Shown: positions 1,298-37,561, counted from the stretch's first letter. The stretch: 64,000 nucleotides of DNA from Bacteroidales bacterium (GCA_014800605.1 JAAVFS010000122.1:373-64372), one strand, 5' to 3'. Notes: generated from the sequence alone by a model not told the origin. Numbers and translations: made by a program.

Positions 1298-1353
1298 GAT
1301 AAGTTGAGTTTTAAAGTAAGATGATATAATGTTTATTGTTGTCTGTGTTCAGG

Positions 1354-2544: not shown

Positions 2545-2579
2545 TTTGCTGTATTATAATATGTATGTTTTGAACGATA

Positions 2580-4987: not shown

Positions 4988-5132
4988 GCTAAAAAAGTGC
5001 ATATCCCCGCATATAAGGGGAATAAAATTTGTGATAAGCTGAGGATGCCGATTCTGACAGATGAATTTTTCAACTAAAAAATACGTTGAAAAATTTGGTA
5101 GAGTAAATTATTTAGCTGATATTTGCGTCGTG

Positions 5133-5148
5133 AACTAATTAATTAGTT
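5133..5148. promoter_or_regulatory. Perfect 16-bp palindrome AACTAATTAATTAGTT, candidate BlaI-family operator
   Basis: Perfect dyad 8 nt upstream of the blaI-like ATG (5156). It shares the half-sites AACTA/TAGTT with the three sites at 54997-55092. Confidence 0.5.
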
Positions 5149-5155
5149 TTTGAAA

Positions 5156-6909: not shown

Positions 6910-6967
6910 TTATTGCTGTCGAAGGGCGAACGAATGAAGAGCTCCGGACGTTTGATTTTTATAAGAA

Positions 6968-7729
6968 ATGTATAGCAATATGATAAGAAAACTTTCCGAT
7001 TGGTTTCGCCACTTCTTTCATGTGGTGTCAAATGTCCGTCCGTTGGCCTGGATCGGACTATATGTGCTGTTGGTGCCAGTCTTCGCTATAATTTACAATC
7101 TCTTGCCTGACGGCCAGTTTAGAATACCTGACGGCGGTACTACCGACTTCGGGTCATGGCTCTACTACAGCATCGTGACCATCACGACCCTCGGCTTCGG
7201 CGATTACACTCCGATGGGTGGCGGAGCTCAGGCTGTCACGGCGGTCGAGGTCATGTGCGGATTGCTCTTCCTCGGGTTCTTCCTCAATGCCGTCGGCTCG
7301 ATGAAGTCGGAGATAGATGTCCGCTCGGAGGTAGAGCGTCAGCGACTCCTCCATGAGGCTGCTGAGCGTAGCAAACTCGAGGGGATGATTCCGTCTGTGA
7401 TCAGTATACTGAATCAGTTTACATCGGCCGTAGATCTATATAAGAAGCAGTCGACAGAGACCGGGCGCCGCGGCTTGGTCAAAAAGGGGGCGCGAGTGAG
7501 CCTCTGCCTTGACGGCTTGCAGAACAGAGTAGACCTCAGTCAGTGGCCGGGACTCGTAGAGGGATGTTTTACCTTTGTGGCAGACTATCAGCTCTATATC
7601 TCGGGTGATGATGACGTGGCAGACGATACTGAGCGTGAGAGCACGTCAGATTTTGTCGACATCGCCTATCGTACTGCCCTCAATATCGAGACCACCCTTA
7701 CCTCTATCTCCACGCATCCCCAAGGATAA
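6968..7729 (+). CDS. Two-TM potassium-channel-family protein with an uncharacterised ~130-aa cytoplasmic C-terminal domain
   Basis: K+ selectivity filter TTLGFGDYTP between two hydrophobic helices. Confidence 0.75.
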   Translation: MYSNMIRKLSDWFRHFFHVVSNVRPLAWIGLYVLLVPVFAIIYNLLPDGQFRIPDGGTTDFGSWLYYSIVTITTLGFGDYTPMGGGAQAVTAVEVMCGLLFLGFFLNAVGSMKSEIDVRSEVERQRLLHEAAERSKLEGMIPSVISILNQFTSAVDLYKKQSTETGRRGLVKKGARVSLCLDGLQNRVDLSQWPGLVEGCFTFVADYQLYISGDDDVADDTERESTSDFVDIAYRTALNIETTLTSISTHPQG

Positions 7730-7734
7730 TAGAA

Positions 7735-7772
7735 GACACCCCAAAAGTCCATAAGGAAACTTTTGGGGTGTC
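7735..7772. terminator. Bidirectional terminator hairpin (14-bp perfect stem)
   Basis: GACACCCCAAAAGT / ACTTTTGGGGTGTC between convergent genes, with A/T-rich flanks. Confidence 0.65.
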
Positions 7773-7799
7773 ATCATTATTTATAGATTACACTGGAAT

Positions 7800-9155
7800 T
7801 CAGACTTTGGGCTCCCAGCCGGGCTCGTAGGTGCGACTGAACAGCTTTGTAGCTTCCGGATCGCCCAGGATGCGGCCCGTCAAGGGGTCTACGTTGAGCG
7901 AGCGGCCTACACGCTGAGAGATGTTGCCGAGCTGAACGAGCTGAGTGGAGATGCATGCATCGACAAGGCCGGAATTGAGTTTGGCGCCTTTGCGGATGCC
8001 GTCAAACCAGTTTTTGAAGTGGATGGTGTCGAGGTCTTCACAGGGGTTGAGCAGGTTACCTTCCTGGAATCCGAGCTCGCTCTTTACATCCTTGATAGTG
8101 TTGCCCTTAAGGTCGACGATGCGATATTCGTCGCCGCCGGTGATGAAGATAGTGCCTTTGTCGCCATAGAATGCTGTGCCTACGCCGGAGCCGTCGACGG
8201 GGGTGCTGTTGCATGAGCGACCCTCCCATGAGCATGTGGCTTTGTCGCCAAATTGAAAGGTCATCATCTGTGTGTCGGGGGTCTGCCAGTCGTCGTCGGT
8301 ATGATTATAGCGGCCGCCTACAGAGCTGACGAGTGTCGGATAGTCGACGTCGAGACCCCAGCGGAGGATGTCGACGAAGTGGGTGCCGTTGTTGAGCGCT
8401 TCGCCTGTGCCCCAGTGCCAGAACCAGTGCCAGTTGTAGTGCAGATAGTTGTCTTTGAAGTCGGCGACACGGGGTGCGGGGCCTTGCCACAGATCCCAGT
8501 CGAGATGGTCGGGTACGGGGACTGCTTTGCCGTTTCCGATCGACGGGCGATTGTTGACATACCACGACTTGGCGTAGTGTACGGGGCCGATTGAACCGCC
8601 TTTGATCTCCTCGATGGCGCGAATCACGTTGGGCCATGAGCGACGCTGGTTGCCGACCTGAACTACAGTGCCGTATTTTGCGGCTGCGCGCATCAGCATG
8701 TCGTTTTCGGCAGGATTGTGTGATGTCGGTTTCTCAAGATAGACATGTTTGCCGGCCTGCATTGCCATGATGGCGGCAGGGGCGTGCCAGTGGTCGGGAA
8801 GTGCGATGACTACGGCATCAACCTCGGGAGATTCGAGCACCTTACGGAGGTCTTTCTCACCCTTGGGGGCTGTTCCGGTCAGGTTTTTGATGTCGGCCTG
8901 GCAGCGCTCGAGTGCGTGAGAGTCGACGTCACAAAGATAGGTCACATCGCAACCGGGCATACGTGCGAAACCCTGGGCAAGAGCACGGCCGCGAGAGTTG
9001 ACGCCCAGGACGGCTACACGGATGCGGTCGTTGGCGCCGATTACTCGATTATTTGATTTGGCGGAAGCTGTCAGTCCGCCGGGGACGATTGACGATACGG
9101 TAAGGGTCGCTGCTGTAGCGAAGGCCTTACGAAGAAAATCTCTACGTGATGACAT
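7800..9155 (-). CDS. Gfo/Idh/MocA-family oxidoreductase with a Tat signal
   Basis: Twin-arginine signal MSSRRDFLRKAFATAATL, Rossmann motif RVAVLGVNSRG, conserved YLEKP and WHWFWHWGTGE. Confidence 0.85.
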   Translation of the reverse strand: MSSRRDFLRKAFATAATLTVSSIVPGGLTASAKSNNRVIGANDRIRVAVLGVNSRGRALAQGFARMPGCDVTYLCDVDSHALERCQADIKNLTGTAPKGEKDLRKVLESPEVDAVVIALPDHWHAPAAIMAMQAGKHVYLEKPTSHNPAENDMLMRAAAKYGTVVQVGNQRRSWPNVIRAIEEIKGGSIGPVHYAKSWYVNNRPSIGNGKAVPVPDHLDWDLWQGPAPRVADFKDNYLHYNWHWFWHWGTGEALNNGTHFVDILRWGLDVDYPTLVSSVGGRYNHTDDDWQTPDTQMMTFQFGDKATCSWEGRSCNSTPVDGSGVGTAFYGDKGTIFITGGDEYRIVDLKGNTIKDVKSELGFQEGNLLNPCEDLDTIHFKNWFDGIRKGAKLNSGLVDACISTQLVQLGNISQRVGRSLNVDPLTGRILGDPEATKLFSRTYEPGWEPKV

Positions 9156-9175
9156 GGTATGATTGATTTATAGAT

Positions 9176-9427
9176 TTATTTATGTGGTTTGCGCATCTTG
9201 CTCCATGCGAGCTTCACACCGTGGAAGATCAGCCGCAGGATCAAGATGTAGATATAAAGGGCAATGGTGATTACCACCACGAATCCCAGTTGCGAGAATA
9301 GCTCGACAGCAGGTCGGTGGAAATGAATGACGGCATATATGTTGGCTCCGAGTGCAGTCAGAAGGCAGGCGGCGAGATATCCGGATTCGCGCGCGAGGAT
9401 TGCCGGAGAAAGTGTTATCGGTTTCAT
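9176..9427 (-). CDS. Small membrane protein (83 aa, hydrophobic helices)
   Basis: Hydrophobic segments. Its start overlaps the stop of the upstream oxidoreductase by 1 nt (TGATG), which suggests translational coupling. Confidence 0.5.
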   Translation of the reverse strand: MKPITLSPAILARESGYLAACLLTALGANIYAVIHFHRPAVELFSQLGFVVVITIALYIYILILRLIFHGVKLAWSKMRKPHK

Positions 9428-10776
9428 CAGAATTTCATGTAGGGGATTTTGTATTCTTCCGGGAAGTCGATGGTAGAGCTGGTCTCCATCGCCAGATTGC
9501 CCAACAGGCAGAGGGTAGTGGCGCAGTAGGCTTCCTCAACGATGTTTTCGGCGCGTTCGCCGGTGATGCAAGCCTGGCAGAATGCGGAGAGTATCTCCTC
9601 GGAACCGTCGTGATCCACGCCCACAGTGCTCTGTCCGTGATTGACATAGGTCGGTCCGGAGAGTATGTCATGGGGTATGTAGCTGTCGGCGGTCTCGGAG
9701 CGCCATGACGGGCCGGCTGCGGGGATCACGGCAAAGATGTCGTCCTTGACCGATTTGAGCAGCTGCTTGATGCCGGAGCGGGAGTCGTCGTCTTCGAGAT
9801 AATAGAATCCCGTGGCGAGGTTCATGGTGCCCTTTGAGCCGAGAATCTGATCCTCCATACCGTTAAACTTGTTGGATATCAGGGTTTCGTAGCTGATTGT
9901 GCGGCCGTCGGAGAATTTGTAGATGACATTGCAGGTATCGTAGACTTCGCGCTCGTCGTCGGTCCAATGGATCAGGTCGCCTGTTCCGAGGATTTTCGAG
10001 GGCATCTTGCCTGCAACCCATGTGCAGACTTCAAGCTGATGGCTGGCCAACTCGGTCATAAGGCCGCCGGATGTCTCCTTGTAGAGACGCCAGTTGATGA
10101 GGCGTTCGTATTCGGGGTCGGGGCAGTCGCGTCGCCAGTCGGCGTTGCGAAACCAGTAGCAACGCATGCCGACAACGTCGCCTATCAGGCCGTCCCTGAT
10201 CATGGCTACACCCTGCACATATTTCGGGTCGAACATGCGCTGCATGCAGTAGTAGAGTACATTGTCACTTTCGAGATACTTGTCATAGACAGCCTTACAC
10301 TGGTCGAGGGTCAGGGCCATCGCCTTCTCGCAAAATACATGCTTGCCGGCGTCGAGTGCATCAAGGGTGATCGGGGCGTGCGAGCCTAAGGGGGTGGCGA
10401 TGATCACGCCGTCGATATCGGGATCATTCAGCACGTCATGGTAGTCTGTATACAGCCTTGCCTCGGGGAAGAGCTCTGAGGCTTCTTTCAGATGAGGCTC
10501 ATAGATGTCGCAGAGGGCTACGACCTCGGCGTGGGGTATGTTCTTGAGGTTGTGGAGGTGGTACTGACCGCGCGAGCCTGTGCCGATGAGGGCGATGCGG
10601 GCTCGGCGTGTCTCTCCGTCCCACTCGGCCTGTTTCTCAGCAGTCAGCGACGACAGCCATGGGGCCACTGAGACCACTCCGGCTGTTCCGGCCAGGACTC
10701 CAAGCCCTTTGAGGAATGAGCGGCGGCTCTCAGAGAGTAACTGTGACTTGCTTTGTGTGGATATATTGTTGTCCAT
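9427..10776 (-). CDS. Gfo/Idh/MocA-family oxidoreductase with a Tat signal (possibly an NAD-dependent glycosidase-like member)
   Basis: SRRSFLKGLGVLAGTAG Tat motif, Rossmann IALIGTGSRGQ, and FCEKA. The size and architecture resemble Tat-exported Gfo/Idh/MocA proteins. Confidence 0.85.
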   Translation of the reverse strand: MDNNISTQSKSQLLSESRRSFLKGLGVLAGTAGVVSVAPWLSSLTAEKQAEWDGETRRARIALIGTGSRGQYHLHNLKNIPHAEVVALCDIYEPHLKEASELFPEARLYTDYHDVLNDPDIDGVIIATPLGSHAPITLDALDAGKHVFCEKAMALTLDQCKAVYDKYLESDNVLYYCMQRMFDPKYVQGVAMIRDGLIGDVVGMRCYWFRNADWRRDCPDPEYERLINWRLYKETSGGLMTELASHQLEVCTWVAGKMPSKILGTGDLIHWTDDEREVYDTCNVIYKFSDGRTISYETLISNKFNGMEDQILGSKGTMNLATGFYYLEDDDSRSGIKQLLKSVKDDIFAVIPAAGPSWRSETADSYIPHDILSGPTYVNHGQSTVGVDHDGSEEILSAFCQACITGERAENIVEEAYCATTLCLLGNLAMETSSTIDFPEEYKIPYMKF

Positions 10777-26163: not shown

Positions 26164-29100
26164 TTAGAACGATACTTCAAGACCGAACTCGAACTGGCGA
26201 GTGTTGGGGTAGAAGAATAATACGCGGTTGACTGCGGGCTCGGGATCAAGGCCTGAGTATTTGGTCACGGTGAAGAGGTTGCGACCGGTGAAGTGGAATG
26301 TCAGGTCTTTGAGGTAGAGCTTGTCAAGGATATTGCGGGGGAGAGTGTAGCTTACGGTGAGGTTCTTCAGACGCATGAATGAAGCGTTCTCGATGAAGCG
26401 TGAGTCAAACTCGATATCCTCTGTAGCAGCGGGGATGTCGGTGATCTGGCCGGGGTGGGTCCAGATGTTGAGCATCTCGACACTCTGGTTTAAGCCCTGG
26501 AGGAAGAGGTCGACGCCCTGAACGTAGCGTTTGTCGTTGTTCATGAGGTACTTCTCAAGGCTATAGTTGAAGTCGGCGCGGAGGGCGAGGCCTTTCCAGC
26601 GGGCGTTGACGCCGAAGCCACCATTCCAGGGTGCGATATAGTTCTTGCCGAGGAACTGAGCCATTGTCTCTTCGTTATAGACCTTTGAGAGGTTGCCGGC
26701 GGGGGTGTACCACATCTGCTTACCGTCGCGGGGATCGACACCTGCAAACTTCACATAGTAGTAGTCGGTAGAAGACTTGCCGATCTCGAAGCGAGTGCCG
26801 GTGTTGGGGATGGTGTAAGCGTCGAGGCCGTCGAAGAGCTCGGTGATTTCGTTCTTGTTGTAGCCGATGTTGAAGTTAGCACCTACGTACCAGTTCTTGT
26901 CGCTGTAGATGTCGGCGTTAAGGTCGATTTCAACACCGGTGTTGGTCATCTTACCTACGTTGCCGTAGCCGGAGCTGAAGCCCTGAGTGTAGCTCCAGGG
27001 GATCGACATGAGCATGTCAAAGGTAGTTTTCTTGTAGACGTCGATATCGAATGAGAGGTGCTGGAAGACGCGACCGCTTACACCGAAGTCGAATGAAGAG
27101 GTGGTCTCCCATGTCAGCATGTTGTTGCCGGGATCAGCTACACCTGAGCCTACAGTGTTGCCGGGGCCGTAAGCGGCAGTTGTGCCGAATGCGCCGAAGT
27201 AGAGGTAGTTAGGTATACCTGAGTTGCCTACCTGACCATAGTTGGCGCGAACGGAGAGCTGGTCGATAGCCTGCACTCTCTTGAGCCATGATTCGTTCTT
27301 CATGTTCCAGCGGGCGCCGACAGAGAAGAATGTACCCCAACGGTGGCCGGGAGCAAACTTAGAGCTGCCGTCACGACGGATAGCTGCGTCAACGAAGTAT
27401 TTCTCGGCATAGTTGTAGTTGACATTAGCGAAGTATGAGTTCATCACTATTCGGCTTGATGACTGTGAGAGGTCGCTGATGGTGACGGTAGTACCCTGGC
27501 TCATAGAGAGCAGACGGGGATCGGTGTGGCCTGTGGAGAGGGCACCGAAAGCGTTTGACTTCTGGATGATTGACTCCTGACCGAGAAGGATGGTCAACTC
27601 ATTGAGATTATTCTTGCCGAATGAGAAGTCGTATTCAGCAGTATTGGTGTAGGTGAACTGATAGTAGCGGGAGAATGAGTTCTGTGAAGAACCTGAGGTG
27701 TAAGAGCCTAAGGGGAGGTTGGTGCTGGGAAGCTTGTCGCCCATAGGTGTGAGGTGCACGAGGCGGGGGATAGATGCGTAGATCAGACGGCTGTCGTAAG
27801 CGTCAACTGACTGCTGAGCGCGGAGGATAAGGCCGCGGATCGGAGTGATCTGCTCGAAGATGTTGGCATTGATAGTGATGCGGTTGCGGTCGAGCTTCTG
27901 ATTATCGGTGATGTAGTCGGGGGTAACGGCGCCGGAGTAGTGGAGATACTGAGCCTTATCGCCGTAGTGGATGTTGCCGGCCTCATCGAAGGTCACGTAG
28001 TAGGGAGAGTCCCAGGGACGTGCGAAGTACTGGAAGAGTGAGGGAGTGTAGATTGAGGGACCTTCCGGGATGTTGCCGCTGTAGATGTCGTCAGACATTC
28101 CGTTGGTCTGGTACTTGGTATAACCGAGGTTGCCCTGGAAGCCGATGCGGAGCCATTTTGCAGCCTGAGTTTCCATGCTCCAGCGGAGGGTCTCACGGCG
28201 CATGCCTGACTGGTTGATGATACCTTCCTGATCGTAGTGGCCGAGTGAGAGATAGTAGCTTGACTTGTCAGAGCCGCCGCGAACTACGCCTTCGAGAGAG
28301 TAGGTGGTAGCGGTGCGGAACATCTGGTCGGTCCAGTTGGTGCTGATGCCGTAGTCGGCAACATACTGCTTGATTTCATCGGGGAAGGGCTGGCCTACGA
28401 GGTCGCCGAAGTCGAGGAGCTGCTGAGAGTTCATCATGGTCACCTTGTCGGGGAGTTTGTTGCCCCAGCCGAGGTTGGCGCGAACAGTCACCTGAGCCTT
28501 TTCGCCCATTTTACCTTTCTTGGATGTGATCACGATAACACCGTTAGAAGCGCGAGAACCGTAGAGGGCGGTAGAAGCGGCGTCCTTGAGGACGGTGATG
28601 TTTTCGATGTCAGCGGGATTGAGAGTGGTGAATACGGTCTGAGATACGGGGGCACCATCAAGGATGTAGAGAGGGGTTGTGCTCGCGTAGAGTGAGTTCG
28701 TACCGCGGATTAGGACCTCATTGTCGGTAGAGGAGGGGTCACCTGAGTTAGACCAGATGCTGAGACCTGCTACTTTACCCTGAAGAGCGTCGACGAATGT
28801 GGTGGAGGGGGTGTTCTCAAGTACGTCAGAGCTAACGACTGAAACGGCACCTACGATAGAGCCGGGCTTTTTAGCAGAGCCGTAACCGGTTACGACAACT
28901 TCGCCGAGGACATTGCTTTCGTCCTGAAGAGCGATGACGATACCGTTGGTCAGTCGGACGGTCTGTGTTTGGTAGCCGACGTAAGACACAGTGGCCTGAG
29001 TGCCTTCAGCAACATTGAGGGTGAAGTTACCGTCAAGGTTGGTTGCGACACCGGCGCCATTAGCGATAGAGACTGAGGCTCCTATCAGAGGCTCATTATC

Positions 29101-29196
29101 GCTGGCCGAAACGACTGTACCGCTGATGGTAGTGGTCTGGGCGTAAGCGGAGGCCGCCAGCATGACAGTCATTAGTAGTAGAAATAGTTTTTTCAT
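26164..29196 (-). CDS. SusC/RagA-family TonB-dependent outer-membrane transporter
   Basis: Signal peptide, carboxypeptidase-regulatory-like N-domain (ISGTVVSASDNEPLIGASV), plug (VVVTGYGS..LQGKVAGL), a 22-strand barrel length, and a C-terminal ..FEFGLEVSF. Confidence 0.9.
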   Translation of the reverse strand: MKKLFLLLMTVMLAASAYAQTTTISGTVVSASDNEPLIGASVSIANGAGVATNLDGNFTLNVAEGTQATVSYVGYQTQTVRLTNGIVIALQDESNVLGEVVVTGYGSAKKPGSIVGAVSVVSSDVLENTPSTTFVDALQGKVAGLSIWSNSGDPSSTDNEVLIRGTNSLYASTTPLYILDGAPVSQTVFTTLNPADIENITVLKDAASTALYGSRASNGVIVITSKKGKMGEKAQVTVRANLGWGNKLPDKVTMMNSQQLLDFGDLVGQPFPDEIKQYVADYGISTNWTDQMFRTATTYSLEGVVRGGSDKSSYYLSLGHYDQEGIINQSGMRRETLRWSMETQAAKWLRIGFQGNLGYTKYQTNGMSDDIYSGNIPEGPSIYTPSLFQYFARPWDSPYYVTFDEAGNIHYGDKAQYLHYSGAVTPDYITDNQKLDRNRITINANIFEQITPIRGLILRAQQSVDAYDSRLIYASIPRLVHLTPMGDKLPSTNLPLGSYTSGSSQNSFSRYYQFTYTNTAEYDFSFGKNNLNELTILLGQESIIQKSNAFGALSTGHTDPRLLSMSQGTTVTISDLSQSSSRIVMNSYFANVNYNYAEKYFVDAAIRRDGSSKFAPGHRWGTFFSVGARWNMKNESWLKRVQAIDQLSVRANYGQVGNSGIPNYLYFGAFGTTAAYGPGNTVGSGVADPGNNMLTWETTSSFDFGVSGRVFQHLSFDIDVYKKTTFDMLMSIPWSYTQGFSSGYGNVGKMTNTGVEIDLNADIYSDKNWYVGANFNIGYNKNEITELFDGLDAYTIPNTGTRFEIGKSSTDYYYVKFAGVDPRDGKQMWYTPAGNLSKVYNEETMAQFLGKNYIAPWNGGFGVNARWKGLALRADFNYSLEKYLMNNDKRYVQGVDLFLQGLNQSVEMLNIWTHPGQITDIPAATEDIEFDSRFIENASFMRLKNLTVSYTLPRNILDKLYLKDLTFHFTGRNLFTVTKYSGLDPEPAVNRVLFFYPNTRQFEFGLEVSF

Positions 29197-29321
29197 ACTA
29201 ATTAATTAATTGAACATAATATTGATTGTAATAAAATTCGTGGTTTTGGGTGTGAAATTGTTACCTGTTTGGTTCGTTTTGGTTTTAACTATTACGTTTG
29301 TATATGTTACTGAATTGTCGG

Positions 29322-29329
29322 CAAAGTTA
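29322..29329 (-). promoter_or_regulatory. Bacteroidota -7 box (TAACTTTG on the minus strand) upstream of susC
   Basis: TAnnTTTG about 126 nt upstream of ATG 29196. Confidence 0.35.
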
Positions 29330-29634
29330 AGCAAAATAGTGCAAAAATTAAAGAAAACTGATAAAAATATCTTTCTTTTAACAATTTAGGAATTATGTTG
29401 TCGGAATATGTTGTAAAACATATTTTGTAATATACAGATATACAAATAGTTGTGTGTCGGCTTTGGAGATCAGGTCCGGTGTTACAATCTTATGACGCCG
29501 CCGGTTTGATAAATGAAGAGGCTTTTGGCTGTTATGAATGATCTGTAAGTAAAATGCTAAATTTTAGTAATAAAATGTAAATACGATAATTTGCCAACTG
29601 AATTGTTGGCTGGAGATGGACTATAGGATACTCG

Positions 29635-29704
29635 GTGAAGCCGCTCCGCGGCTATTTGGTCAGATTGTTATACTGTCCGCGGGTTCTTGCAACCAGCGGT
29701 TAAC
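29635..29704 (+). repeat. 70-nt REP-like unit A (GCCGCTCCGCGGC palindrome plus a 9-bp-stem hairpin CCGCGGGTT-N5-AACCAGCGG)
   Basis: An inverted copy lies at 34743-34812. They share an identical 20-nt block and 12+9-nt blocks. Confidence 0.75.
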
Positions 29705-29711
29705 GAGGTAA

Positions 29712-29745
29712 AGCCGCTCCGCGGCATTGGTGGTTATTTTATGTA
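29712..29745 (+). repeat. REP-like unit B (AGCCGCTCCGCGGCATTGGTGGTTATTTTATGTA), interrupted by the transposon
   Basis: Near-identical unit at 34544-34581 (AGCCGCTCCACGGCATTGACGGTTATTATATGTTATGG). Its continuation TTATGG is found at 34521 after the insertion. Confidence 0.7.
29738..29745. repeat. Target-site duplication TTTATGTA (left copy)
   Basis: An identical 8-mer directly abuts the right terminal repeat at 34513-34520. Confidence 0.85.
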
Positions 29746-29768
29746 GGTAATTATATATAAAGTTACAC
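29746..29768 (+). repeat. Left terminal inverted repeat GGTAATTATATATAAAGTTACAC
   Basis: Matches the reverse complement of 34490-34512 at 21/23 positions. Confidence 0.85.
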
Positions 29769-29800
29769 AAAATAAATTTGCACCTATGTAAACTTATTCT

Positions 29801-29808
29801 TATCTTTG
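29801..29808 (+). promoter_or_regulatory. Bacteroidota -7 box TATCTTTG (with a TTTG -33-like element at 29777-29780) for the transposase
   Basis: TAnnTTTG 22 nt upstream of ATG 29830. This argues against the TTG 29806 start in the ORF track. Confidence 0.5.
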
Positions 29809-29829
29809 CATCATATAAATGATAATCGT

Positions 29830-30744
29830 ATGATTGACAAAGATTTCAATTCAATAATCGAGCTGTTTGAGACATTTCCCGACGAACAGAGTTGCATCGA
29901 CCATTTGGAATGGCTTCGGTGGCACGGTGACGTGGTAAGTCCATTCGACCCGACATCGACAGTCTACAAGTGCAAAGATAACAAATATCGCTGTAAAAAC
30001 ACAGGAAAATACTTCAATGTAAAGACAAAGACATTGTTTGACAGCTCAAAAGTTGAGTTGCGCAAATGGTTTGCCGCGATATGGCTTGTGACTTCTCATA
30101 AGAAAGGAATATCATCTGCTCAGTTGGCCCGTGACATTGACGTAACGCAGAAAACGGCATGGTTTATGTTGCAGCGCATCCGCAACTGTTTCGGTATTGA
30201 AAATGACAGCGAACTTAACAATACTGTTGAGATAGATGAAACGTATGTTGGCGGTAAGGAGAAAAACAAGCATGCGAATAAACGTACTGAAGGTTCACGT
30301 GGGCGTAGTGTCAAAGACAAAGTGCCTGTTCTCGGAATGGTAGAACGAAAAGGCAAACTTGTCGCAAAGGTTGTAGAGAATACAACATGCGCTGTCTTAA
30401 CGCCTCAAATTGTGCAATACGTTAAAGATGCTTTAATCTATACCGATGAATGGTGGGGCTATAACTCAATTAGAAAACTATTCCAACATCAAGACGTACA
30501 TCACAAGGCAAAAGAATATGCCCATGGTGATGTCTATACCAATACTATCGAGGGTTTTTGGTCGTTATTGAAGCGTGGTATCATCGGAATCTATCATTTC
30601 ACTTCCAAGCAGCACTTGCAGAAATATGTGGATGAATTTGTATTTCGTTACAATACCCGCAAGCATACGGAATCTGAGCGATTCAATCTTTTACTCGGCA
30701 ATACTGAACATAGACTAACTTATAAAGAATTGATATATGGATAA
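29830..30744 (+). CDS. IS1595-family (ISXO2-like) DDE transposase
   Basis: N-terminal zinc-ribbon/HTH region (CIDHLEWLRWHG..YKCKDNKYRCKNTGKYF..ISSAQLARDIDVTQKTAWFMLQRIR). Catalytic contexts IDETYVGG, YTDEWWGY, NTIEGFWSLLKR. Confidence 0.85.
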   Translation: MIDKDFNSIIELFETFPDEQSCIDHLEWLRWHGDVVSPFDPTSTVYKCKDNKYRCKNTGKYFNVKTKTLFDSSKVELRKWFAAIWLVTSHKKGISSAQLARDIDVTQKTAWFMLQRIRNCFGIENDSELNNTVEIDETYVGGKEKNKHANKRTEGSRGRSVKDKVPVLGMVERKGKLVAKVVENTTCAVLTPQIVQYVKDALIYTDEWWGYNSIRKLFQHQDVHHKAKEYAHGDVYTNTIEGFWSLLKRGIIGIYHFTSKQHLQKYVDEFVFRYNTRKHTESERFNLLLGNTEHRLTYKELIYG

Positions 30745-31768
30745 CAATTTATATGCAACCCATAAGGGCATAGTAAAGATTGGCGAATATAGTGTCCCAT
30801 GTGCGGTCCTAAATAATGGGAAACGTGTATTTATACAACGAGAAATAGTCGGTTTATTAACTGGTAATAAAAAAGGTGGATTAGATAGGTATCTGCAAGC
30901 TAAGACTTTACAAGAATACGTGCCAGATAAATTCAAAGGGGATGGGTTGGTCCAGAATGTCTACAAATTTAGGTTAGACAATAAAGATGCTCATGGATTT
31001 GAAGCAACTGATGTTATTGATATTAGCATGATGTATATTAATGCTAACAATGACGGCAAACTCTTGGCAAGTCAAAAACACCTTGCAGCTCAATCATTAG
31101 TAATTGTCTCTGCATTTGCGAAGACAGGCGTTATTGCTGTCATAGATGAAGCAACCGGTTACTTAAAAGAGAAGAATAGAGCTAAAGACGAATTACAAAA
31201 GTTCCTACAAAGTTTCATGAGGGAGGAAGCCGCAAAACTTGTAAAACGTTTTGAGGATTCATTCTTTGAAATGATTTATAAAATGCGTGGATGGACATGG
31301 AATTACACCCATAAACATCCCGGTGTCGTCGGTCAATGGATTAATGATTTGGTTTATGAGAGAATTGCTCCTATGGTATTAAGTGAACTTCGTAAAAAGA
31401 ATCCCACTTTGGCTAATGGACAACGTAAATACAAGCATCATCAATTCTTAACCGATGAAATTGGAATACCCAAGCTGTTGGCACATATATCTACATTAGA
31501 GGCTTTTGGTCGTGCGTCTAACTACGATTGGAATATGTTTTTAGATATGGTTGATAGGGCTTTCCCTAAACAAAATCAACAGTTACGTATTTTTTTTGGG
31601 GATATTTATTTAGAGGATAAAAAAGAGGTAGAGTCTACCGAAAAAACGTCATCATTTAATAAACTGCTCACCCAAGCCCTCAACTATGACCCAAAGAAAG
31701 ATAAACGCAACGACAATGAGGGCAAAGAAGAAGAAGATGATGAAGATTTCTGTTGTGTTATAAAATAG
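30737..31768 (+). CDS. P63C-domain protein with an acidic C-terminal tail
   Basis: Pattern typical of the phage-associated P63C domain (..WINDLVYERIAPMVLSELRKKNP..GQRKYKHHQFLTDEIGIPKLLAHISTLEAF..). The start overlaps the transposase stop by 8 nt. Confidence 0.6.
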   Translation: MDNNLYATHKGIVKIGEYSVPCAVLNNGKRVFIQREIVGLLTGNKKGGLDRYLQAKTLQEYVPDKFKGDGLVQNVYKFRLDNKDAHGFEATDVIDISMMYINANNDGKLLASQKHLAAQSLVIVSAFAKTGVIAVIDEATGYLKEKNRAKDELQKFLQSFMREEAAKLVKRFEDSFFEMIYKMRGWTWNYTHKHPGVVGQWINDLVYERIAPMVLSELRKKNPTLANGQRKYKHHQFLTDEIGIPKLLAHISTLEAFGRASNYDWNMFLDMVDRAFPKQNQQLRIFFGDIYLEDKKEVESTEKTSSFNKLLTQALNYDPKKDKRNDNEGKEEEDDEDFCCVIK

Positions 31769-31797
31769 AATCTCAAAAAATTTCACTACATTTGCAA

Positions 31798-31823
31798 GCG
31801 GATAGGACAGAGGTCTTGTCCGC
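31798..31823 (+). terminator. Terminator candidate after the P63C gene
   Basis: GCGGA...TCCGC stem with an inner GAC/GTC, followed by TACATTTTTA. Confidence 0.4.
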
Positions 31824-32096
31824 TACATTTTTATTAACGCATAGCGTTTAATGCTATTGTACTCGATTCAGAAAACTGCCAATTTTCAACACAACGGGGA
31901 CAAAGCACTGAACGCCCACGGTCTTGTCACATCTCAAAGGTGTGGCTTGTTTGGTGGGCTTAGTGTCTCTGTATGTTGTGTGGGTATGGCAGTACCTCTG
32001 AATCGTACAAGATGCAAAAGCCCACCACTATTTTTTTATTGGTGGTGGCAGTAACTTCGGCAATATTGCAAACTAACCAATAAACTTTTCAAAATT

Positions 32097-32465
32097 ATGA
32101 AACATTTCAAACAAATTGCAACACTGCTTATCGTATTAATCAGCAGCGTAATGGTGTCATGTTCCGATGAACCACAGAACACAGCGATAGTAGGAACGTG
32201 GAAGTATGTAGTTACCGAAGAAGGATGGTCTGGGAAAAACGAAGTCGGAATAACATATACATTCACAAAAAAGGGAAGAGTTACATGTAGAATGTGGGTT
32301 TATAAGAATGGTAAAAAAACATCTGATGATGAGTATAATTTCTCATACACGTTTGATGGCAAGTCAGTAACACTTAAAGATTCAAGTGGTTCTTCTGTAA
32401 CATATAAAGTCACTATCTCTCGTAACCAAATGACGATGGATGGCAGAACATATACCAAACAATAA
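32097..32465 (+). CDS. Small lipoprotein (lipocalin-like fold suspected)
   Basis: Lipobox VMVSC|S and the GTWKYV motif common in lipocalin-like lipoproteins. 122 aa. Confidence 0.55.
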   Translation: MKHFKQIATLLIVLISSVMVSCSDEPQNTAIVGTWKYVVTEEGWSGKNEVGITYTFTKKGRVTCRMWVYKNGKKTSDDEYNFSYTFDGKSVTLKDSSGSSVTYKVTISRNQMTMDGRTYTKQ

Positions 32466-32476
32466 ACTGCTAAAAT

Positions 32477-32983
32477 ATGAAAAAATATCTCATTTTGTTA
32501 ATAGTGACAATAGTTGGAACTCTATCTTCAAGCGCTCAATCACAAGTATCTGCCAAGTATCAAGGCGAAGTCGAATTGGGTTATTCTTTTGGTGTAGGCA
32601 CATTGGCTACAGATCGGATTAATCTCCATTCGATAAATGGCGTGAAAGTGGGAGACTATTTCTCCGCAGGTATTGGACTCGGGCTTGATTATTATAGGGA
32701 ACTATATGATAAGGGAGAGCTTTTGTTGCCTATATATGTGAACGCGAAGGGATATGTGCCTGTAAATAATAAAGTCGCTCCTTTTTTATCGGTCAACTTG
32801 GGCTATGGAATAGGTCTGACTGAGGGATTAAAAAGTTGCGATGGCATGCTGTGGGCTATTGCACTCGGCGTAAAGATACAAAAGTTTAAGGTTCAACTTG
32901 GGTACACATCACAACGTATATCAGAACATGGTATTGGCATTGATATGAATGCAGTGCAATTAGGTATCGGTATAGTTTTTTGA
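32477..32983 (+). CDS. Small outer-membrane beta-barrel protein (8-strand class)
   Basis: Signal peptide ..SSSAQS, alternating Gly/aromatic strands, and a C-terminal ..LGIGIVF. Confidence 0.6.
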   Translation: MKKYLILLIVTIVGTLSSSAQSQVSAKYQGEVELGYSFGVGTLATDRINLHSINGVKVGDYFSAGIGLGLDYYRELYDKGELLLPIYVNAKGYVPVNNKVAPFLSVNLGYGIGLTEGLKSCDGMLWAIALGVKIQKFKVQLGYTSQRISEHGIGIDMNAVQLGIGIVF

Positions 32984-33021
32984 CATAATAAACACATTCC
33001 TATAACTTAAAGCTATTCAAT

Positions 33022-33543
33022 ATGTTTAGAATAAAACATTTGGCATTTACATTGTTTATAAATGGATTATTGTTATCTCTCACATCTTGTTCCACTTCCA
33101 AGACATCTTTGAGTGAAAGATACGTACATCAAAAATCATTCACTACACAGTTACCTTTTGAGCGTGTTTGGGATAACGTAATTGACCTTTTCGCGGAAAA
33201 CGGCATAGCGATCTCAAATATGGAAAAAGCAAGTGGACTTATAGTTGCAAATGGGATTGAGTATGATGACAATTATACTGTTGAGAATCCAAATAGATAT
33301 AATCCCACGGCATATTTTGTTATCCCTATGCACAAATTTGATGCTGCAAAAATTACAGCCAGCTTTAATGTGCGGGTTAGACAAAACGATGATAATACAG
33401 TTACAGTATCAATCAATCTTCCAAATCTAAAAGCAACAACATACAAAAGAGATATATGGACGGGAGTATATATTCCAAAAGTTGTAGACGTTGCATCTAC
33501 GGGTGTGTTTGAACAAATGCTATTTGATATTATTTCCAGATAG
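33022..33543 (+). CDS. Small lipoprotein, function unknown
   Basis: Lipobox LSLTSC|S. 173 aa. No recognisable domain. Confidence 0.5.
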   Translation: MFRIKHLAFTLFINGLLLSLTSCSTSKTSLSERYVHQKSFTTQLPFERVWDNVIDLFAENGIAISNMEKASGLIVANGIEYDDNYTVENPNRYNPTAYFVIPMHKFDAAKITASFNVRVRQNDDNTVTVSINLPNLKATTYKRDIWTGVYIPKVVDVASTGVFEQMLFDIISR

Positions 33544-33573
33544 AGAAAGAATAAGAAACCTCTAAATAATCAA

Positions 33574-33602
33574 AGAGCGAGATTTTGGTCTCGCTCTTTT
33601 TT
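33574..33602 (+). terminator. Rho-independent terminator of the three-gene exported-protein module
   Basis: 9-bp perfect stem AGAGCGAGA/TCTCGCTCT followed by TTTTT. Confidence 0.7.
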
Positions 33603-33688
33603 ATGAACTTTTTGTTATTTTAAATGAAAGAGCTGTTATTATTGCGCAAAATTTGTGATAAATATTTGCACATATAAAAAATCATTGC

Positions 33689-33696
33689 TAACTTTG
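33689..33696 (+). promoter_or_regulatory. Bacteroidota -7 box TAACTTTG (with TTTG at 33665-33668) for the NYN gene
   Basis: Exact consensus with -33/-7 spacing like that of the transposase promoter. Confidence 0.5.
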
Positions 33697-33770
33697 CAAT
33701 ACCTCTAATGAAACCCCATTCCCACGCGGATGGCTTAAGCCACTTTTTAGTGGCTTGTTTTTTTATTTAT

Positions 33771-34421
33771 ATGACAGTAAATTTTTATATAGACGGCTAT
33801 AATTTTTATTATGGTCTTAGGGCTGCTAAGAATAGTGACGCAAAATGGTGCAGTGCATATTGGATAGATTTTGTAGAGTTATGTCGCAAATTCCTTGGCC
33901 TAGAACAAGAACTTGGTAAGGTGGTGTATTTTACAGCTACACCCTTTCATAGAGATAAAGCAGCACGACAACGCGCATTATTGAAAGTTAATAAAGCATT
34001 ACATCCTACTGAATTTGAGGTAGTAATGGGCCGTTATCTTTCAAAAAAAATCAAATGTCCTAATTGTAATGGATGGTTTCCACGCCCCGAAGAAAAGAAA
34101 ACGGATGTAAACATCTCTGTTCGTTTACTTGGTGATTGTATGTTTAATGCTACGGATAGGGTTGTTCTTGTTAGTGCTGATTCCGACCTCGTACCTCCCT
34201 TAAATTTCATTATTCAAAACTTCCCTGATAAAAAGATTAGAGTTATGTTTCCTATAACTCTAAATTGTAAGGAAACAATTTCATTGCTTCATAAGAACTC
34301 TCTAAAAGTTGTTTTCTTAGAAAAAAATTTTGCAAGATTTAAACAATCCGTATTGCCAGATAATGTTGTCGTTGATGGAGTAGCTTACTCAATTCCTCAA
34401 AAGTGGAAAGAAAGACTATAA
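33771..34421 (+). CDS. NYN (PIN-like) domain protein with an inserted zinc ribbon
   Basis: Starts MTVNFYIDGYNFYYG (NYN first Asp strand). KKTDVNISVRLLGD and VLVSADSDLVPPL are acidic catalytic-type motifs, and CPNCNGWF is a zinc-ribbon half. I prefer ATG 33771 over ATG 33708. Confidence 0.7.
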   Translation: MTVNFYIDGYNFYYGLRAAKNSDAKWCSAYWIDFVELCRKFLGLEQELGKVVYFTATPFHRDKAARQRALLKVNKALHPTEFEVVMGRYLSKKIKCPNCNGWFPRPEEKKTDVNISVRLLGDCMFNATDRVVLVSADSDLVPPLNFIIQNFPDKKIRVMFPITLNCKETISLLHKNSLKVVFLEKNFARFKQSVLPDNVVVDGVAYSIPQKWKERL

Positions 34422-34428
34422 TAGAAGC

Positions 34429-34455
34429 AAGGAGTTGGGCAAAAACCAACTCCTT
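34429..34455 (+). terminator. Rho-independent terminator after the NYN gene
   Basis: 10-bp stem AAGGAGTTGG/CCAACTCCTT followed by a T-run. Confidence 0.65.
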
Positions 34456-34489
34456 TTATATTTCATAACACATGCTATCCCCCTACCGA

Positions 34490-34512
34490 GTGTAGCTTTG
34501 TATATAATTACC
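34490..34512 (-). repeat. Right terminal inverted repeat (GGTAATTATATACAAAGCTACAC on the minus strand)
   Basis: 21/23 match to the left repeat. Confidence 0.85.
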
Positions 34513-34520
34513 TTTATGTA
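34513..34520. repeat. Target-site duplication TTTATGTA (right copy)
   Basis: Identical to 29738-29745. Confidence 0.85.
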
Positions 34521-34543
34521 TTATGGAGCATTGTGGTATGTGT

Positions 34544-34603
34544 AGCCGCTCCACGGCATTGACGGTTATTATATGTTATGGTAAGTAAAGCCGCTCCGCG
34601 GCT
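34544..34603 (+). repeat. REP-like units (AGCCGCTCCACGGC... and AGCCGCTCCGCGGCT)
   Basis: Two further copies of the GCCGCTCC(G/A)CGGC palindrome in direct orientation. Confidence 0.7.
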
Positions 34604-34742
34604 TGCGGTGGAGTGATATAGTAACCGGTTTGAGATTAATTGGCGAGATGGTAGCGAGGATGGTTGTTACTGCCCTATAGTATCAACATGACGACAATAT
34701 TATTATTGAAATTCGGGATGAGCCCGGGACGGGCTCTATTTT

Positions 34743-34812
34743 GTTAACCGCGGGTTCTTGTAACCCGCGGACAACCGAAACTCAACAACGAGTAGCCGCG
34801 GAGCGGCTTCAC
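34743..34812 (-). repeat. 70-nt REP-like unit A, inverted copy, abutting the 3' end of the Y1 transposase gene
   Basis: The reverse complement begins GTGAAGCCGCTCCGCGGCTA and ends GCGGTTAAC, exactly as at 29635-29704. It contains the hairpin CCGCGGGTT-CTTGT-AACCCGCGG. Confidence 0.75.
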
Positions 34813-34820
34813 ATACTGAA

Positions 34821-35264
34821 CTAAATCCAATCCTGTGGATGCCAGTCAACGCCATTAGCATTGGCTAACTCTTTAGTTCCCTCAGTAAACGCTACGCCGG
34901 AATGATGTTTTTCCTGATTGATTATATAGTTCATACACTTATTAAATTCCTTTCTACTAAGTGAAAATGCATAATATCCTCTGGCCCATCCATCAAAAAT
35001 TCTGAAGTCGGGGTGTTGTTTTATCCAGTAGCTGCTTGATTGTTTTATAGTCTTGACGAGATCAGCCATGGATATGGTCGGATCTATATCCACCAGCATG
35101 TGGTCGTGATCTTCCATGCCATTTATACGATGCAATCTGCAACCTTTAGCTTTTATGATACCGTGAATGTATGCAAAGAGGTCGCGCTTGGAGGTGGCTG
35201 GAATCGTGGCTGCTCGGTTGCGAGTGCAAAATACGATATGATGGAGTGAGAGGGTCTTGCTCAT
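34821..35264 (-). CDS. IS200-like Y1 (HUH) transposase without tnpB, REP-associated (RAYT-like)
   Basis: 147 aa. HHIVFCTRNR, HUH-type HDHMLV, GYYAFS (catalytic Tyr region), and YIINQEKHH. Flanked on its 3' side by REP-like palindromes. Confidence 0.8.
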   Translation of the reverse strand: MSKTLSLHHIVFCTRNRAATIPATSKRDLFAYIHGIIKAKGCRLHRINGMEDHDHMLVDIDPTISMADLVKTIKQSSSYWIKQHPDFRIFDGWARGYYAFSLSRKEFNKCMNYIINQEKHHSGVAFTEGTKELANANGVDWHPQDWI

Positions 35265-35278
35265 GGGGGTAGGAGGGA

Positions 35279-37561
35279 TCAGAAGGGGTAGCCGATAGCG
35301 AGGTGGAAGGCGAGAGAGTTTTTGAATGAGGTCATGTTGTAGTAGCCGGATTTGCCGGTGTCATACGGGGCATGGATGCCTACGCCGAGGTCGGCGCGGA
35401 GCACAAGCATCGAGATGTCGAAGCGGAGTCCGGCGCCTGTGCCGAGGGCGAGGTCGCGGAAGAAGGTGCTACCGCGGAGCTGGCCGCCGGGTCGTTGGGG
35501 ATCGTCCTTCAGGAGCCATACATTGCCTGAGTCGAGGAAGATGGCGCCATGGAGGGGGCCGACGATGGGGAAGCGGTACTCGACATTGAATTCAAATTTG
35601 AAAGTACCGGTCTGGTCGAAGTAGGCATCGACGGCATCTTCGGGTGCATGATAGGAGCCGGGGCCGATGGAGCGGACTGTGAAGGCGCGGATGGAGTTGG
35701 CGCCGCCGACATAGAACTGCTCGGCGTAGGGCACATGCGTCGAGTTGCCGTAGGCATGGGCTGCTCCGACGGCTACGCGGGAGACGAGGTGATTGTCGCC
35801 CCAGAGGCGGCGGTTGTAGACGAGCTGGGTCGTGCCTTTGACGAATTGCGAGAACGGGGTACCGAAGAGCTTTTTCTCGCCATGCTTGCCGGCGAGTTCG
35901 TAGATGCCCCAGAAGATGTTGCCGGCTTCCTGGGCTGTAAAGCTGAAGCTGATGGAGTTGTTGCGGTCGAAGCTGCGCTCATAGGCATAGGTGTACATCA
36001 TCTGGGGGATGAACTGCGAGCGGAAACTGAGGGCAATAGCGGGATTGGCAGCTGTGATGGAGTCAAAGTCGGCGGTGGTGTGGAGCAGCTTGGTGTAGGT
36101 CAGCTTGAAGGGGGTGAATGTGGTGTAGGCATGACGCGTGGCTTGCCACTCATAGGAGTATGAGAGGTTGAACTGCGCCATCTTGAAATAGTGGGGGCGA
36201 TTGAGGAGGTCGGCATTGAGGGAGATGCGCGTCCAGTTGAGTGCGCGACGGCTTCGTGGAATGAATTTGGGCGCTATAAGGCGGGGGAAGGCGAGCGATC
36301 CGGTCAGCCCGACTTCGTAGGAATTGAAGACGGATGAGTTTTTGCCGCCGGAGTTGCCGGTCTGCCATTCGTAGGAGCCGGTAGCTGAGATGCTGAGCTG
36401 TTCGCCACCGCCGAGGAGGTTGCGATTGGTGACGGAGACGGTGGCACCGGGGCCTATGTAGGAGTTGCTTTTGGAGGAGGCGTTGACTTCGACGGTAGCT
36501 TCGAGGGGGGTGTCGAGGGTGCAGTCGACCAGGACGTTGAGACGGTTGCCTCGCAGGGAGTCGGGGGTCACTGAGATGTCAATGCCATTGAAGATACCGA
36601 GGCGGGCCAGGTAGGTCTGGGTGCGGTCCATGTCGCGCACGCGGAAGACGCGGCCACGGCGGAATGTGATGCACTCGGGGATCAGCTTGCGGTTAACGCG
36701 CGAAGGCTGCATCTGGACGAGGGTGGCGCGCTGTAAGGGGATGGTGTCGAAGCTGGTCCCGGAGCCGTAGGGGCGGTTGATTTTGACGACGATGTCGCCT
36801 GTAGTCCAGCGGCGCATGGCGAGGGGGGGAGTGTTGTCGGCGATGTCGATCTTGAGAGCTATGGCGCCGCGGGTGATGAGTGAGTCGGCCAGATACTCGA
36901 TGTATTCGGGGCGGAAATAGTAGTAGCCGCGGTTGCGCAGGGTGTTGGCGATACGCACGCGGACATCCGAGAGGGAGTCGGTCGAGAATCGCACGCCCTC
37001 CTTGAGGTAGGGGTCGATGGTGGCGAGCGAGTCTATCAGATGGTAGATTGGCAGGGTGTCGGGGAGGAGCTCGATGCGATCGATGGGATAGGCCGGGCCG
37101 GGATTGATAGTATAGGTGATGGATGCTTTTTTCGGGTTTTTGGCGGGATTGAGGGTATAGGAGGCTGAGCCGCGGAAGTAGCCGTTGTTGTCGAGGAGCT
37201 CTTCGAGCATGTGGGTGCGGATCTCGGGGCGCACGTCGGAGACAAGGACAGGCTCTTTGGCGAGTTTTTCATAGATCCAGTGCTTGAAGCCTTTGGGAGG
37301 ATTGGGCCAGTTATTGTAGACCCAAAGGCCGAGCGGGAACGGGTAGCGCCACTTGAGCAGCTTGAAATAGTTGTTGGGAGCGACATCGACCACATCGCTC
37401 AGCTCCGATGCGAGCCCCTCGGCCAGGCGGGTGCTGTCGGTCGGAGCGTTGATCACAACTTTCCTTACGCCTGTATAGAGTTGCTCACCGTCGGGGATGC
37501 GTCGGGTGGTGGAGCAGGCTGCGAGAAGGAGGAGCAGGAGGATATATAGGTAGCGTCGCAT
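35279..37561 (-). CDS. BamA/TamA-family outer-membrane protein (lipoprotein form)
   Basis: Lipobox LLAAC|S, POTRA-like N-region, a 16-strand Omp85 barrel with VGGANSIRAF and a terminal ..LAIGYPF. It lies immediately downstream of tamB. Confidence 0.8.
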   Translation of the reverse strand: MRRYLYILLLLLLAACSTTRRIPDGEQLYTGVRKVVINAPTDSTRLAEGLASELSDVVDVAPNNYFKLLKWRYPFPLGLWVYNNWPNPPKGFKHWIYEKLAKEPVLVSDVRPEIRTHMLEELLDNNGYFRGSASYTLNPAKNPKKASITYTINPGPAYPIDRIELLPDTLPIYHLIDSLATIDPYLKEGVRFSTDSLSDVRVRIANTLRNRGYYYFRPEYIEYLADSLITRGAIALKIDIADNTPPLAMRRWTTGDIVVKINRPYGSGTSFDTIPLQRATLVQMQPSRVNRKLIPECITFRRGRVFRVRDMDRTQTYLARLGIFNGIDISVTPDSLRGNRLNVLVDCTLDTPLEATVEVNASSKSNSYIGPGATVSVTNRNLLGGGEQLSISATGSYEWQTGNSGGKNSSVFNSYEVGLTGSLAFPRLIAPKFIPRSRRALNWTRISLNADLLNRPHYFKMAQFNLSYSYEWQATRHAYTTFTPFKLTYTKLLHTTADFDSITAANPAIALSFRSQFIPQMMYTYAYERSFDRNNSISFSFTAQEAGNIFWGIYELAGKHGEKKLFGTPFSQFVKGTTQLVYNRRLWGDNHLVSRVAVGAAHAYGNSTHVPYAEQFYVGGANSIRAFTVRSIGPGSYHAPEDAVDAYFDQTGTFKFEFNVEYRFPIVGPLHGAIFLDSGNVWLLKDDPQRPGGQLRGSTFFRDLALGTGAGLRFDISMLVLRADLGVGIHAPYDTGKSGYYNMTSFKNSLAFHLAIGYPF

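Follow-up and report, generated by a model that had tools for sequence, protein, structure and literature searches.

A probable IS1595-family transporter insertion sequence in a Bacteroidales genome combines a transposase-coupled protein, a conserved leader RNA and cargo genes

A 64,000-nt stretch of DNA from a Bacteroidales bacterium (GCA_014800605.1 JAAVFS010000122.1:373-64372; hereafter the window, to whose positions all coordinates refer) contains a mobile element of 4,767 bp at 29746-34512, which we assign with a probability of about 0.93 to the transporter insertion sequences (tIS) of the IS1595 family, as a fresh member of an established category. The features found are those of the family, namely a transposase that matches its profiles, a D-D-E motif followed by a basic residue, and short terminal repeats bordered by an 8-bp duplication. 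These insertion sequence (IS)-like ends and the duplication enclose the transposase gene and five further genes, among them a second open reading frame (ORF2) for a P63C-domain protein, and all 4,767 bp are absent from an empty site described below. The 23-bp terminal inverted repeats agree at 21/23 positions, and their pattern, allowing up to three mismatches, occurs at two places in 64 kb, the two ends of the element, where 0 were expected; the octamer TTTATGTA is likewise present exactly twice, both copies touching the repeats (Table 1). G+C content is 0.32-0.43 in the interior, against 0.53-0.57 in the genes upstream and 0.59-0.64 in those downstream. A preliminary description made from the sequence alone had proposed the repeats with their identical flanking 8-mers, the AT-rich interior in GC-rich surroundings, and an IS1595-type transposase with its own promoter inside the element; all of these were recovered, the promoter as a predicted motif. 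At present the genes of the element are annotated as hypothetical.

The insertion can be read from an empty allele. A metagenome contig of 1,806 bp from another sample (L083, ENA ERZ23500226), found through the exact protein sequence of the flanking Y1 transposase, spans from the start of the SusC gene over repetitive extragenic palindromic (REP)-like units and the Y1 gene to the gene of a BamA/TamA-family outer-membrane protein. It aligned in one piece of 1,806 nt (99.3% identity) to the window from which 29746-34520 had been removed, whereas against the intact window it fell into two pieces, 29090-29745 and 34513-35667, overlapping by 8 nt; at the insertion point it reads ...GGTGGTTATTTTATGTATTATGGAGC..., with one TTTATGTA. 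Such a split with an 8-nt overlap is the signature of a recent insertion that made an 8-bp duplication. The preliminary description had reconstructed an empty site and suggested looking for one in other genomes, and the contig supplies a real allele that differs by the element and one 8-mer; the rebuilt REP-like unit also resembles the neighbouring one as had been claimed, with 88% identity over 33 nt (34544-34576).

Since the occupied site and its junctions are identical in three independent assemblies (the NCBI metagenome-assembled genome (MAG), ENA ERZ27267594 and Logan SRR11425465), the occupied site is not an assembly accident. We accordingly give next to no credence to an assembly or binning artefact, for which the metagenomic origin of the source genome would speak but which is contradicted by these three records and by a fourth sample whose empty site differs exactly by the element and one 8-mer. 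The same negligible weight falls to an islet integrated by a site-specific recombinase, as Pfam and NCBIfam profile matches revealed no recombinase, relaxase or integrase domain among the six proteins of the element. The site-specific recombinase and att repeats of an integrative island, an integrative and mobilizable element or an integrative and conjugative element were not found, and neither was a second IS copy flanking the cargo as in a compound transposon, the window holding one transposase gene and two repeat matches.

Relatives of the element were collected in a scan covering one genome per species, in which transposase matches 48-82% identical to that of the window were obtained at 80 loci. 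Many of their ends have the form GG(T/C)AA(T/C)(T/G)ATATA...TTACAC. Perfect 8-bp duplications, all different and AT-rich, delimit 27 elements of 2,081-5,758 bp (the window's and the sister element L084 included), and more than 30 delimited insertions share the end motif while carrying different AT-rich 8-bp duplications. The sister L084, recovered from a metagenome scan with the repeat sequence, is 3,368 bp long; its 23-bp ends are the same as those of the window element, its transposase shares 91% identity with the window's, and its duplication is TAAATAAA. The proposed check for copies elsewhere with other 8-bp duplications turned up relatives at several sites. Identical elements were also found at more than one site: a cargo-bearing element of 3,586 bp lies at two loci (L099 and L100, with duplications TTTTTCAA and AAAAAATA), and a Bacteroides uniformis element of 3,099 bp at four (L117-L120, with TGAATTTT, TAAACAAG, TAAAATAA and ATATTTAT). 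Because identical elements occupy different sites with different duplications, the cargo-bearing members of the clade move as whole units.

No bare IS of ~1.1 kb with repeats and a duplication was encountered in the clade, nor any delimited element below 2.0 kb, and the minimal relatives, 2.05-2.3 kb long, consist of transposase and ORF2 alone. The preliminary description took most IS1595 members to be simple IS and the cargo to be unusual; in this clade cargo is the norm and not the exception. The minimal relatives could also be taken to suggest a one-off capture, in which a 2.1-kb IS of transposase and ORF2 mobilised the adjacent chromosomal DNA by way of a chance distal repeat. We consider this most improbable, given that the window contains no internal repeat-like sequence even at three mismatches, that the right end matches the left at 21/23 positions, that the interior is AT-rich throughout, unlike the host, that the arrangement of leader and exported protein is common to the sister elements, and that cargo-bearing relatives move repeatedly as units.

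The B. uniformis copy at L120 is broken at 5017-6409 by a nested insertion of ~1.4 kb with Transposase_mut (IS256-type) fragments. At L090, an element at 6917-10072 with a transposase 92% identical to the window's, a KilA-N+BstA_C ORF2 and the leader has ends that agree at 23/23 positions and no duplication (AACGATTG versus TTTGTGAA), and the Logan contig L091 is exactly this 3,156-bp element. Together the two records suggest several copies and recombination between copies.

The transposase itself is intact, scoring 151.6 bits against PF12762 (cutoff 27) and 209.2 bits against NCBIfam NF033547, 'IS1595 family transposase' (cutoff 75). Residues D136, D206 and E241, invariant across 52 aligned relatives, would form the catalytic triad, and K248 follows seven residues past E241. 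Towards the N-terminus, C22 and C55 are invariant or nearly so; the NF033547 match begins at residue 72, and no match to Pfam Zn_Tnp_IS1595 was obtained at E ≤ 0.01. The ends of the window element, GGTAATTAT, and its D-D-E-K motif would fit the ISNwi1 subgroup, whose consensus we take to be ends ggnnatTAT and DDE-K, with passenger carriers up to ~4.7 kb, and the size of the element would place it at the top of that range.

The tIS category on the IS1595 family reportedly goes back to Siguier, Gagnevin & Chandler 2009 (Res Microbiol 160:232). As cited in PMC3129680 and PMC11891212, the concept was introduced with the IS1595 family for IS-like elements with passenger genes; the definition used here is that of bioRxiv 10.1101/2021.05.26.445724. 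With tIS of this family the window element shares a single DDE transposase, short repeats starting with GG, an 8-bp duplication and genes lying before the right end, while its cargo set is specific to it. ISSag10/MTnSag1 of Streptococcus agalactiae also unites an IS1595-family transposase and a downstream passenger in one small unit; the passenger there is one antibiotic-resistance gene, lnu(C), whereas the window element carries five genes and an RNA, with no resistance gene among them. ISSag10 adjoining LnuC is listed in PMC10782964.

The gene next to the transposase gene stands out among the passengers. ORF2 matches PF10546 at 90.8 bits and phrog_2384 at E 7e-78, and its start lies within the end of the transposase gene. 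The same coupling recurs among the relatives: a start of the following reading frame 1-11 nt ahead of the transposase stop was seen at 45 of the 80 loci, and 26 show the identical 8-nt overlap. Among 47 such ORF2 proteins, the Pfam assignment of the head is RhuM in 14, P63C in 12, KilA-N in 9 and Bro-N in 1, and behind transposases 90-92% identical to the window's, KilA-N+BstA_C (L090) or RhuM (L092) stands in place of P63C. Nucleotide homology between sister elements ends exactly at the transposase stop and returns ~100 nt before the ORF2 stop, a mosaic pattern in which the backbone is kept and the ORF2 body and the cargo are exchanged.

What the ORF2 proteins have in common is a C-terminal tail with the consensus S-D-F-D/N-x-x-L-K-K-A/G-L-N-Y-N-P-K, present in 42 of 54 whatever the head and distributed over Bacteroidota, Proteobacteria and Streptococcus. 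Entropy in its coding region is highest at the third codon position (1.59, versus 1.05 and 0.80). A variant of the tail, ...LKGLLSVPP, was met only together with the end variant GG(C/T)AA(C/T)GATATA (6/6), on RhuM, P63C or other heads; the form of the tail follows that of the repeats and the backbone rather than the family of the head. Phage and prophage homologues of P63C are without the tail, and three IS-linked ones have it. An AlphaFold2 model of the window's ORF2 (mean predicted local distance difference test score, pLDDT, 83.6) shows the tail as a short helix past a low-confidence linker. The head can be very small, since the tail is also present on ORF2 proteins of 145-152 aa and of 91 aa: the Streptococcus relatives (L018, L022-L028, L032) encode a short coupled ORF2 of 145-152 aa that has the tail at its end (SDFDKKLWIAMNYNPR), which in L018 and L022-L028 we regard as a likeness to the window element, and L048 an ORF2 of just 91 aa that is still tail-bearing.

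ORF2 is translationally coupled to the transposase and ends in a motif found clade-wide, and it probably serves as an accessory protein instead of being cargo. The tail may act as an element-specific docking or interaction peptide, and ORF2 may be an exception to the idea that the passengers of tIS are uninvolved in transposition. A Foldseek comparison of the ORF2 model with the PDB gave nothing better than E 0.1, with TM-scores ≤0.15. One database record, MT839392.1 ('Bacteriophage sp.', 4,319 bp), with a 44%-identical P63C gene, was considered as a mis-filed element or circle and set aside as a genuine phage fragment, having neither repeats nor transposase nor leader.

A second conserved part of the backbone, a leader RNA, follows ORF2. 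Its fold opens with a 5' hairpin and U-run (31797-31824); a small hairpin and a long imperfect one follow, and a further hairpin closes the 3' end. In L084, L085, L086, L087 and L090 its nucleotide identity is 78-88% despite different neighbouring genes, and it is not a reading frame, because copies differ by single-base indels. The minimum free energy is -112.1 kcal/mol on the plus strand (z = -8.8) versus -92.2 on the minus strand, and many G-U pairs allowed the strand to be assigned. In an alignment that includes the divergent copies L112, L003 and L064, 96.3% of cells pair, and nine pairs show compensatory changes, compared with 2.5 ± 1.3 in shuffles (0/500) and 1-3 when the partners were slid. 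The promoter box TAnnTTTG recurs at the equivalent place in L084, L085, L086, L087, L003 and L064, and all versions of the leader have such a box immediately upstream. The gene behind the leader encodes an exported, lipo- or outer-membrane protein in every copy, and in L112 and L003 leader and gene are inverted as one. We infer a putative role as a promoter and structured 5' leader for the cargo.

Comparison with Rfam gave nothing at E ≤ 1 over 29400-35300, and for the leader region alone at E ≤ 10 two snoRNA chance matches (E 4.6 and 9.3); no copies were found in PLSDB plasmids, GenBank phages or IMG/VR viral contigs. A literature search returned no published description of the leader RNA or of a coupled ORF2 with the C-terminal motif, and both the ORF2 tail and the leader RNA may be new. 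Two copies of the leader occur on apparently chimeric backbones: L086 (654-676) and L087 (98-120) combine the same 23-bp end and the leader with a transposase just 51-53% identical, and in place of a coupled ORF2 they have two reading frames on the minus strand.

The B. uniformis element offers a close comparison. It shares with the window element an architecture of a transposase, an overlapping P63C ORF2 (with a tail variant), one more gene and AT-rich 8-bp duplications. It differs in its ends (GGCATTTATATAC...), in an ORF2 48% identical to the window's, in the lack of a leader RNA and in its cargo gene, which is another one and lies on the opposite strand. The element is very abundant in human gut data, its ORF2 being listed in 1,753 collection blocks.

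These observations can be arranged in a model whose statements on how transposition proceeds, and on what ORF2, the RNA and the cargo do, are conditional. The DDE transposase would recognise both 23-bp repeats and insert the whole 4,767-bp unit with duplication of an AT-rich 8-bp target, here inside a REP-like unit between the SusC and Y1-transposase genes of a Muribaculaceae-like Bacteroidales genome. The inserted unit comprises five modules: a predicted promoter with the transposase gene; the translationally coupled ORF2, with a swappable head (P63C here) and a conserved C-terminal helix as a presumptive element-specific interaction peptide; a promoter with the ~275-nt structured leader RNA; a variable cargo behind the leader, in the window element two lipoproteins and a small outer-membrane barrel; and a gene for a NYN (HEC-09-like) nuclease, which would be transcribed separately.

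We tentatively extend this model to the clade, as a proposal that may well prove wrong: its members might be three-part platforms made of a transposase, a tail-docked accessory protein with exchangeable head, and a leader-RNA cassette for exported or outer-membrane cargo. The tail helix, in its main form and two variants, would dock the accessory protein to the transposase or the transpososome, and the heads would be exchanged among phage-type DNA-binding, antirepressor and abortive-infection modules (P63C, RhuM, KilA-N/BstA-like, Bro-N). The leader cassette would be a portable expression or regulatory unit in a gut Bacteroidales sub-lineage. Were this so, the element would link its transposition with surface remodelling and with modules that sense phages or target DNA. 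In either case the ORF2 tail and the leader RNA are testable handles on how small transposons recruit and express cargo and on whether a 'passenger' beside a transposase is a partner.

A classical tIS, in which ORF2 and all the other parts behind the transposase are carried passively, the tail and the leader are backbone by descent and module-swapping recombination simply breaks upstream of them, would account for part of these data, and we regard it as possible but doubtful. Sister homology resumes ~100 nt before the ORF2 stop and continues through the leader, as an inherited block would, and ORF2 has neither a PADLOC match nor a PDB fold match. Against passive descent speak several features of the tail: its amino-acid sequence is conserved between phyla, third codon positions being the most variable; four unrelated head families carry it, as does an ORF2 of 91 aa; it is absent from the phage and prophage P63C homologues; and its variant co-varies with that of the repeats (6/6). 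The overlap of the ORF2 start with the transposase stop at 45/80 loci speaks against it as well.

Several points weigh against our own interpretation of the element and its parts. No identical copy was found at a second site, the exact transposase being recovered only at this locus in two other assemblies; the best match in the species-representative genomes is 82% identical, and the window holds one copy of the element. As no second-site copy was found, the mobility of the window's own element rests on the empty site. Eight of the 33 delimited relatives are without a recognisable tail-bearing ORF2, yet have duplications, and ORF2 is therefore not strictly required in cis, which also agrees with the classical tIS. 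Conservation of the tail could in part result from recombination breakpoints lying upstream of it, the evidence for the leader RNA comes from nine sequences, and the ISNwi1-like label, after the subgroups of ISfinder, is tentative.

The identity of the heads and of the cargo also invites a functional explanation, which we entertain as a speculative one: the element might chiefly be a vehicle for host-beneficial conflict genes, with ORF2 and the NYN protein directed against phages and the lipoproteins and barrel altering the surface, and with selection for these traits, instead of for transposition, keeping the modules. For BstA, a KilA-N prophage protein, defence by abortive infection has been demonstrated experimentally (Owen et al. 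2021, PMC8585504), and a KilA-N+BstA_C protein serves as ORF2 in the sister L090 (transposase 92% identical to the window's). BstA differs in that it is prophage-borne and not known to bear the tail, while the window's ORF2 is a P63C protein. The last cargo gene of the element matches the PADLOC profile HEC-09 over its full length (E 5.4e-42, profile positions 4-203/203), with PF01936 at 27.4 bits, and the cargo behind the leader is always exported or outer-membrane. HEC-09, however, is a candidate NYN RNase defence gene defined as embedded in Hma systems, and its authors saw no protection from any phage that they tried (Payne et al., bioRxiv 10.1101/2024.01.29.577857); the homologue in the window is transposon-borne and has its own promoter motif. 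Also contrary to a defensive vehicle, the P63C ORF2 of the window gave no match in PADLOC, and the BSAP-5i immunity protein (NF053773), considered for the 122-aa lipoprotein, was rejected at 26.4 bits against a cutoff of 150; related lipoproteins of L084 and L087 reach 18-20 bits, the match lying mostly in the signal peptide. TIR_2 and HipA_C genes first taken as cargo of L103 behind its RhuM ORF2 lie outside that element, which ends at 8135, before both genes.

Whatever the functions, the window provides a clean case of a tIS that inserted recently, has precise boundaries and can be compared with an empty site, which helps to annotate Muribaculaceae-like and Bacteroides genomes. The clade to which it belongs is very abundant in gut Bacteroidales, and between strains it shuffles surface proteins, a candidate nuclease of the NYN type and phage-type proteins, BstA-like ones included.

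Table 1. Features of the element and of its insertion site, in window coordinates.
Feature	Position	Strand	Remark
Five REP-like hairpins (AGCCGCTCCGCGGC; AGCCGC-TCC-GCGGCT)	29635-29725, 34539-34812		Around this locus only in the window; 0.04 expected
Left target-site duplication copy, TTTATGTA	29738..29745	.	Abuts left repeat; single copy in L083
Left terminal inverted repeat, GGTAATTATATATAAAGTTACAC	29746..29768	+	Motif common to relatives' ends
Bacteroides-type promoter motif, TTTG-N20-TATCTTTG	29777..29808	+	5' of transposase gene, by motif
IS1595-family DDE transposase, 304 aa, intact	29830..30744	+	PF12762, NF033547
ORF2, P63C-domain protein, 343 aa	30737..31768	+	Start overlaps transposase stop by 8 nt (ATGGATAA)
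Conserved C-terminal tail of ORF2, SSFNKLLTQALNYDPK, residues 305-320	31649..31696	+	
-7 promoter box, TACATTTG (TAnnTTTG)	31787..31794	+	Directly 5' of leader, read from alignments
Structured leader RNA, ~275 nt	31797..32073	+	Between P63C stop and first cargo gene
Cargo: lipocalin-like lipoprotein, 122 aa	32097..32465	+	PF13648 26.7 bits (cutoff 22.4); lipobox VSC from translation
Cargo: small outer-membrane beta-barrel-like protein, 168 aa	32477..32983	+	PF13505 21.4 bits, below cutoff 28.7; weak call
Cargo: lipoprotein, 173 aa, lipobox LTSC	33022..33543	+	No family
Terminator-like hairpin after three-gene cargo unit	33572..33599	.	Reported on minus strand; plus strand reads AAAGAGCGAGATTTTGGTCTCGCTCTTTTTT
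Second Bacteroides-type promoter motif, TTTG-N20-TAACTTTG	33665..33696	+	5' of NYN gene, by motif
Cargo: NYN-domain protein, HEC-09 homologue	33708..34421	+	Likely start 33771
Terminator-like hairpin after NYN gene	34429..34455	+	
Right terminal inverted repeat, reverse complement GGTAATTATATACAAAGCTACAC	34490..34512	-	21/23 versus left repeat
Right target-site duplication copy, TTTATGTA	34513..34520	.	Abuts right repeat
Lone Y1 transposase gene, IS200/IS605-type, RAYT-like	34821-35264	-	Adjoins REP-like cluster
BamA/TamA-family outer-membrane protein gene	35279-37561		

The insertion target lies inside a REP-like unit between the SusC gene and the Y1-transposase gene. The sequence comes from a MAG designated 'Bacteroidales bacterium', and the 90% cluster of its SusC protein includes proteins of Muribaculaceae MAGs.

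Within the element, six protein genes were counted including the transposase gene, which leaves five passengers where the preliminary description had six. Its division of the element into three transcription units with promoters and terminators is plausible on the basis of sequence motifs: the window holds 7 matches to the Bacteroides-type promoter motif TTTG-N18-22-TAnnTTTG where 0.5 would be expected, and two of these, both within the element, immediately precede the transposase and NYN genes. One terminator-like hairpin lies behind the P63C gene, another behind the three-gene unit and a third behind the NYN gene. The region of the second motif repeats that of the transposase promoter in direct orientation. 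A scan for sigma-70 promoters was uninformative (19 sites versus 19 expected).

Among the cargo proteins, the barrel-like one has a signal peptide and a C-terminal Phe, and in L084, L087 and L112 its homologues are again preceded by this leader. A further homologue, 49% identical, is encoded at L064 555-1049 on the minus strand, just outside the left end of the element at 1198-4300. The NYN gene probably starts at the ATG at 33771 rather than at 33708, because the family matches begin at residues 24-26. With that start, a hairpin and T-run at 33736-33757 would fall in the 5' untranslated region of the gene, just past its promoter motif, the same arrangement of promoter motif followed by hairpin and T-run as at the beginning of the leader RNA.

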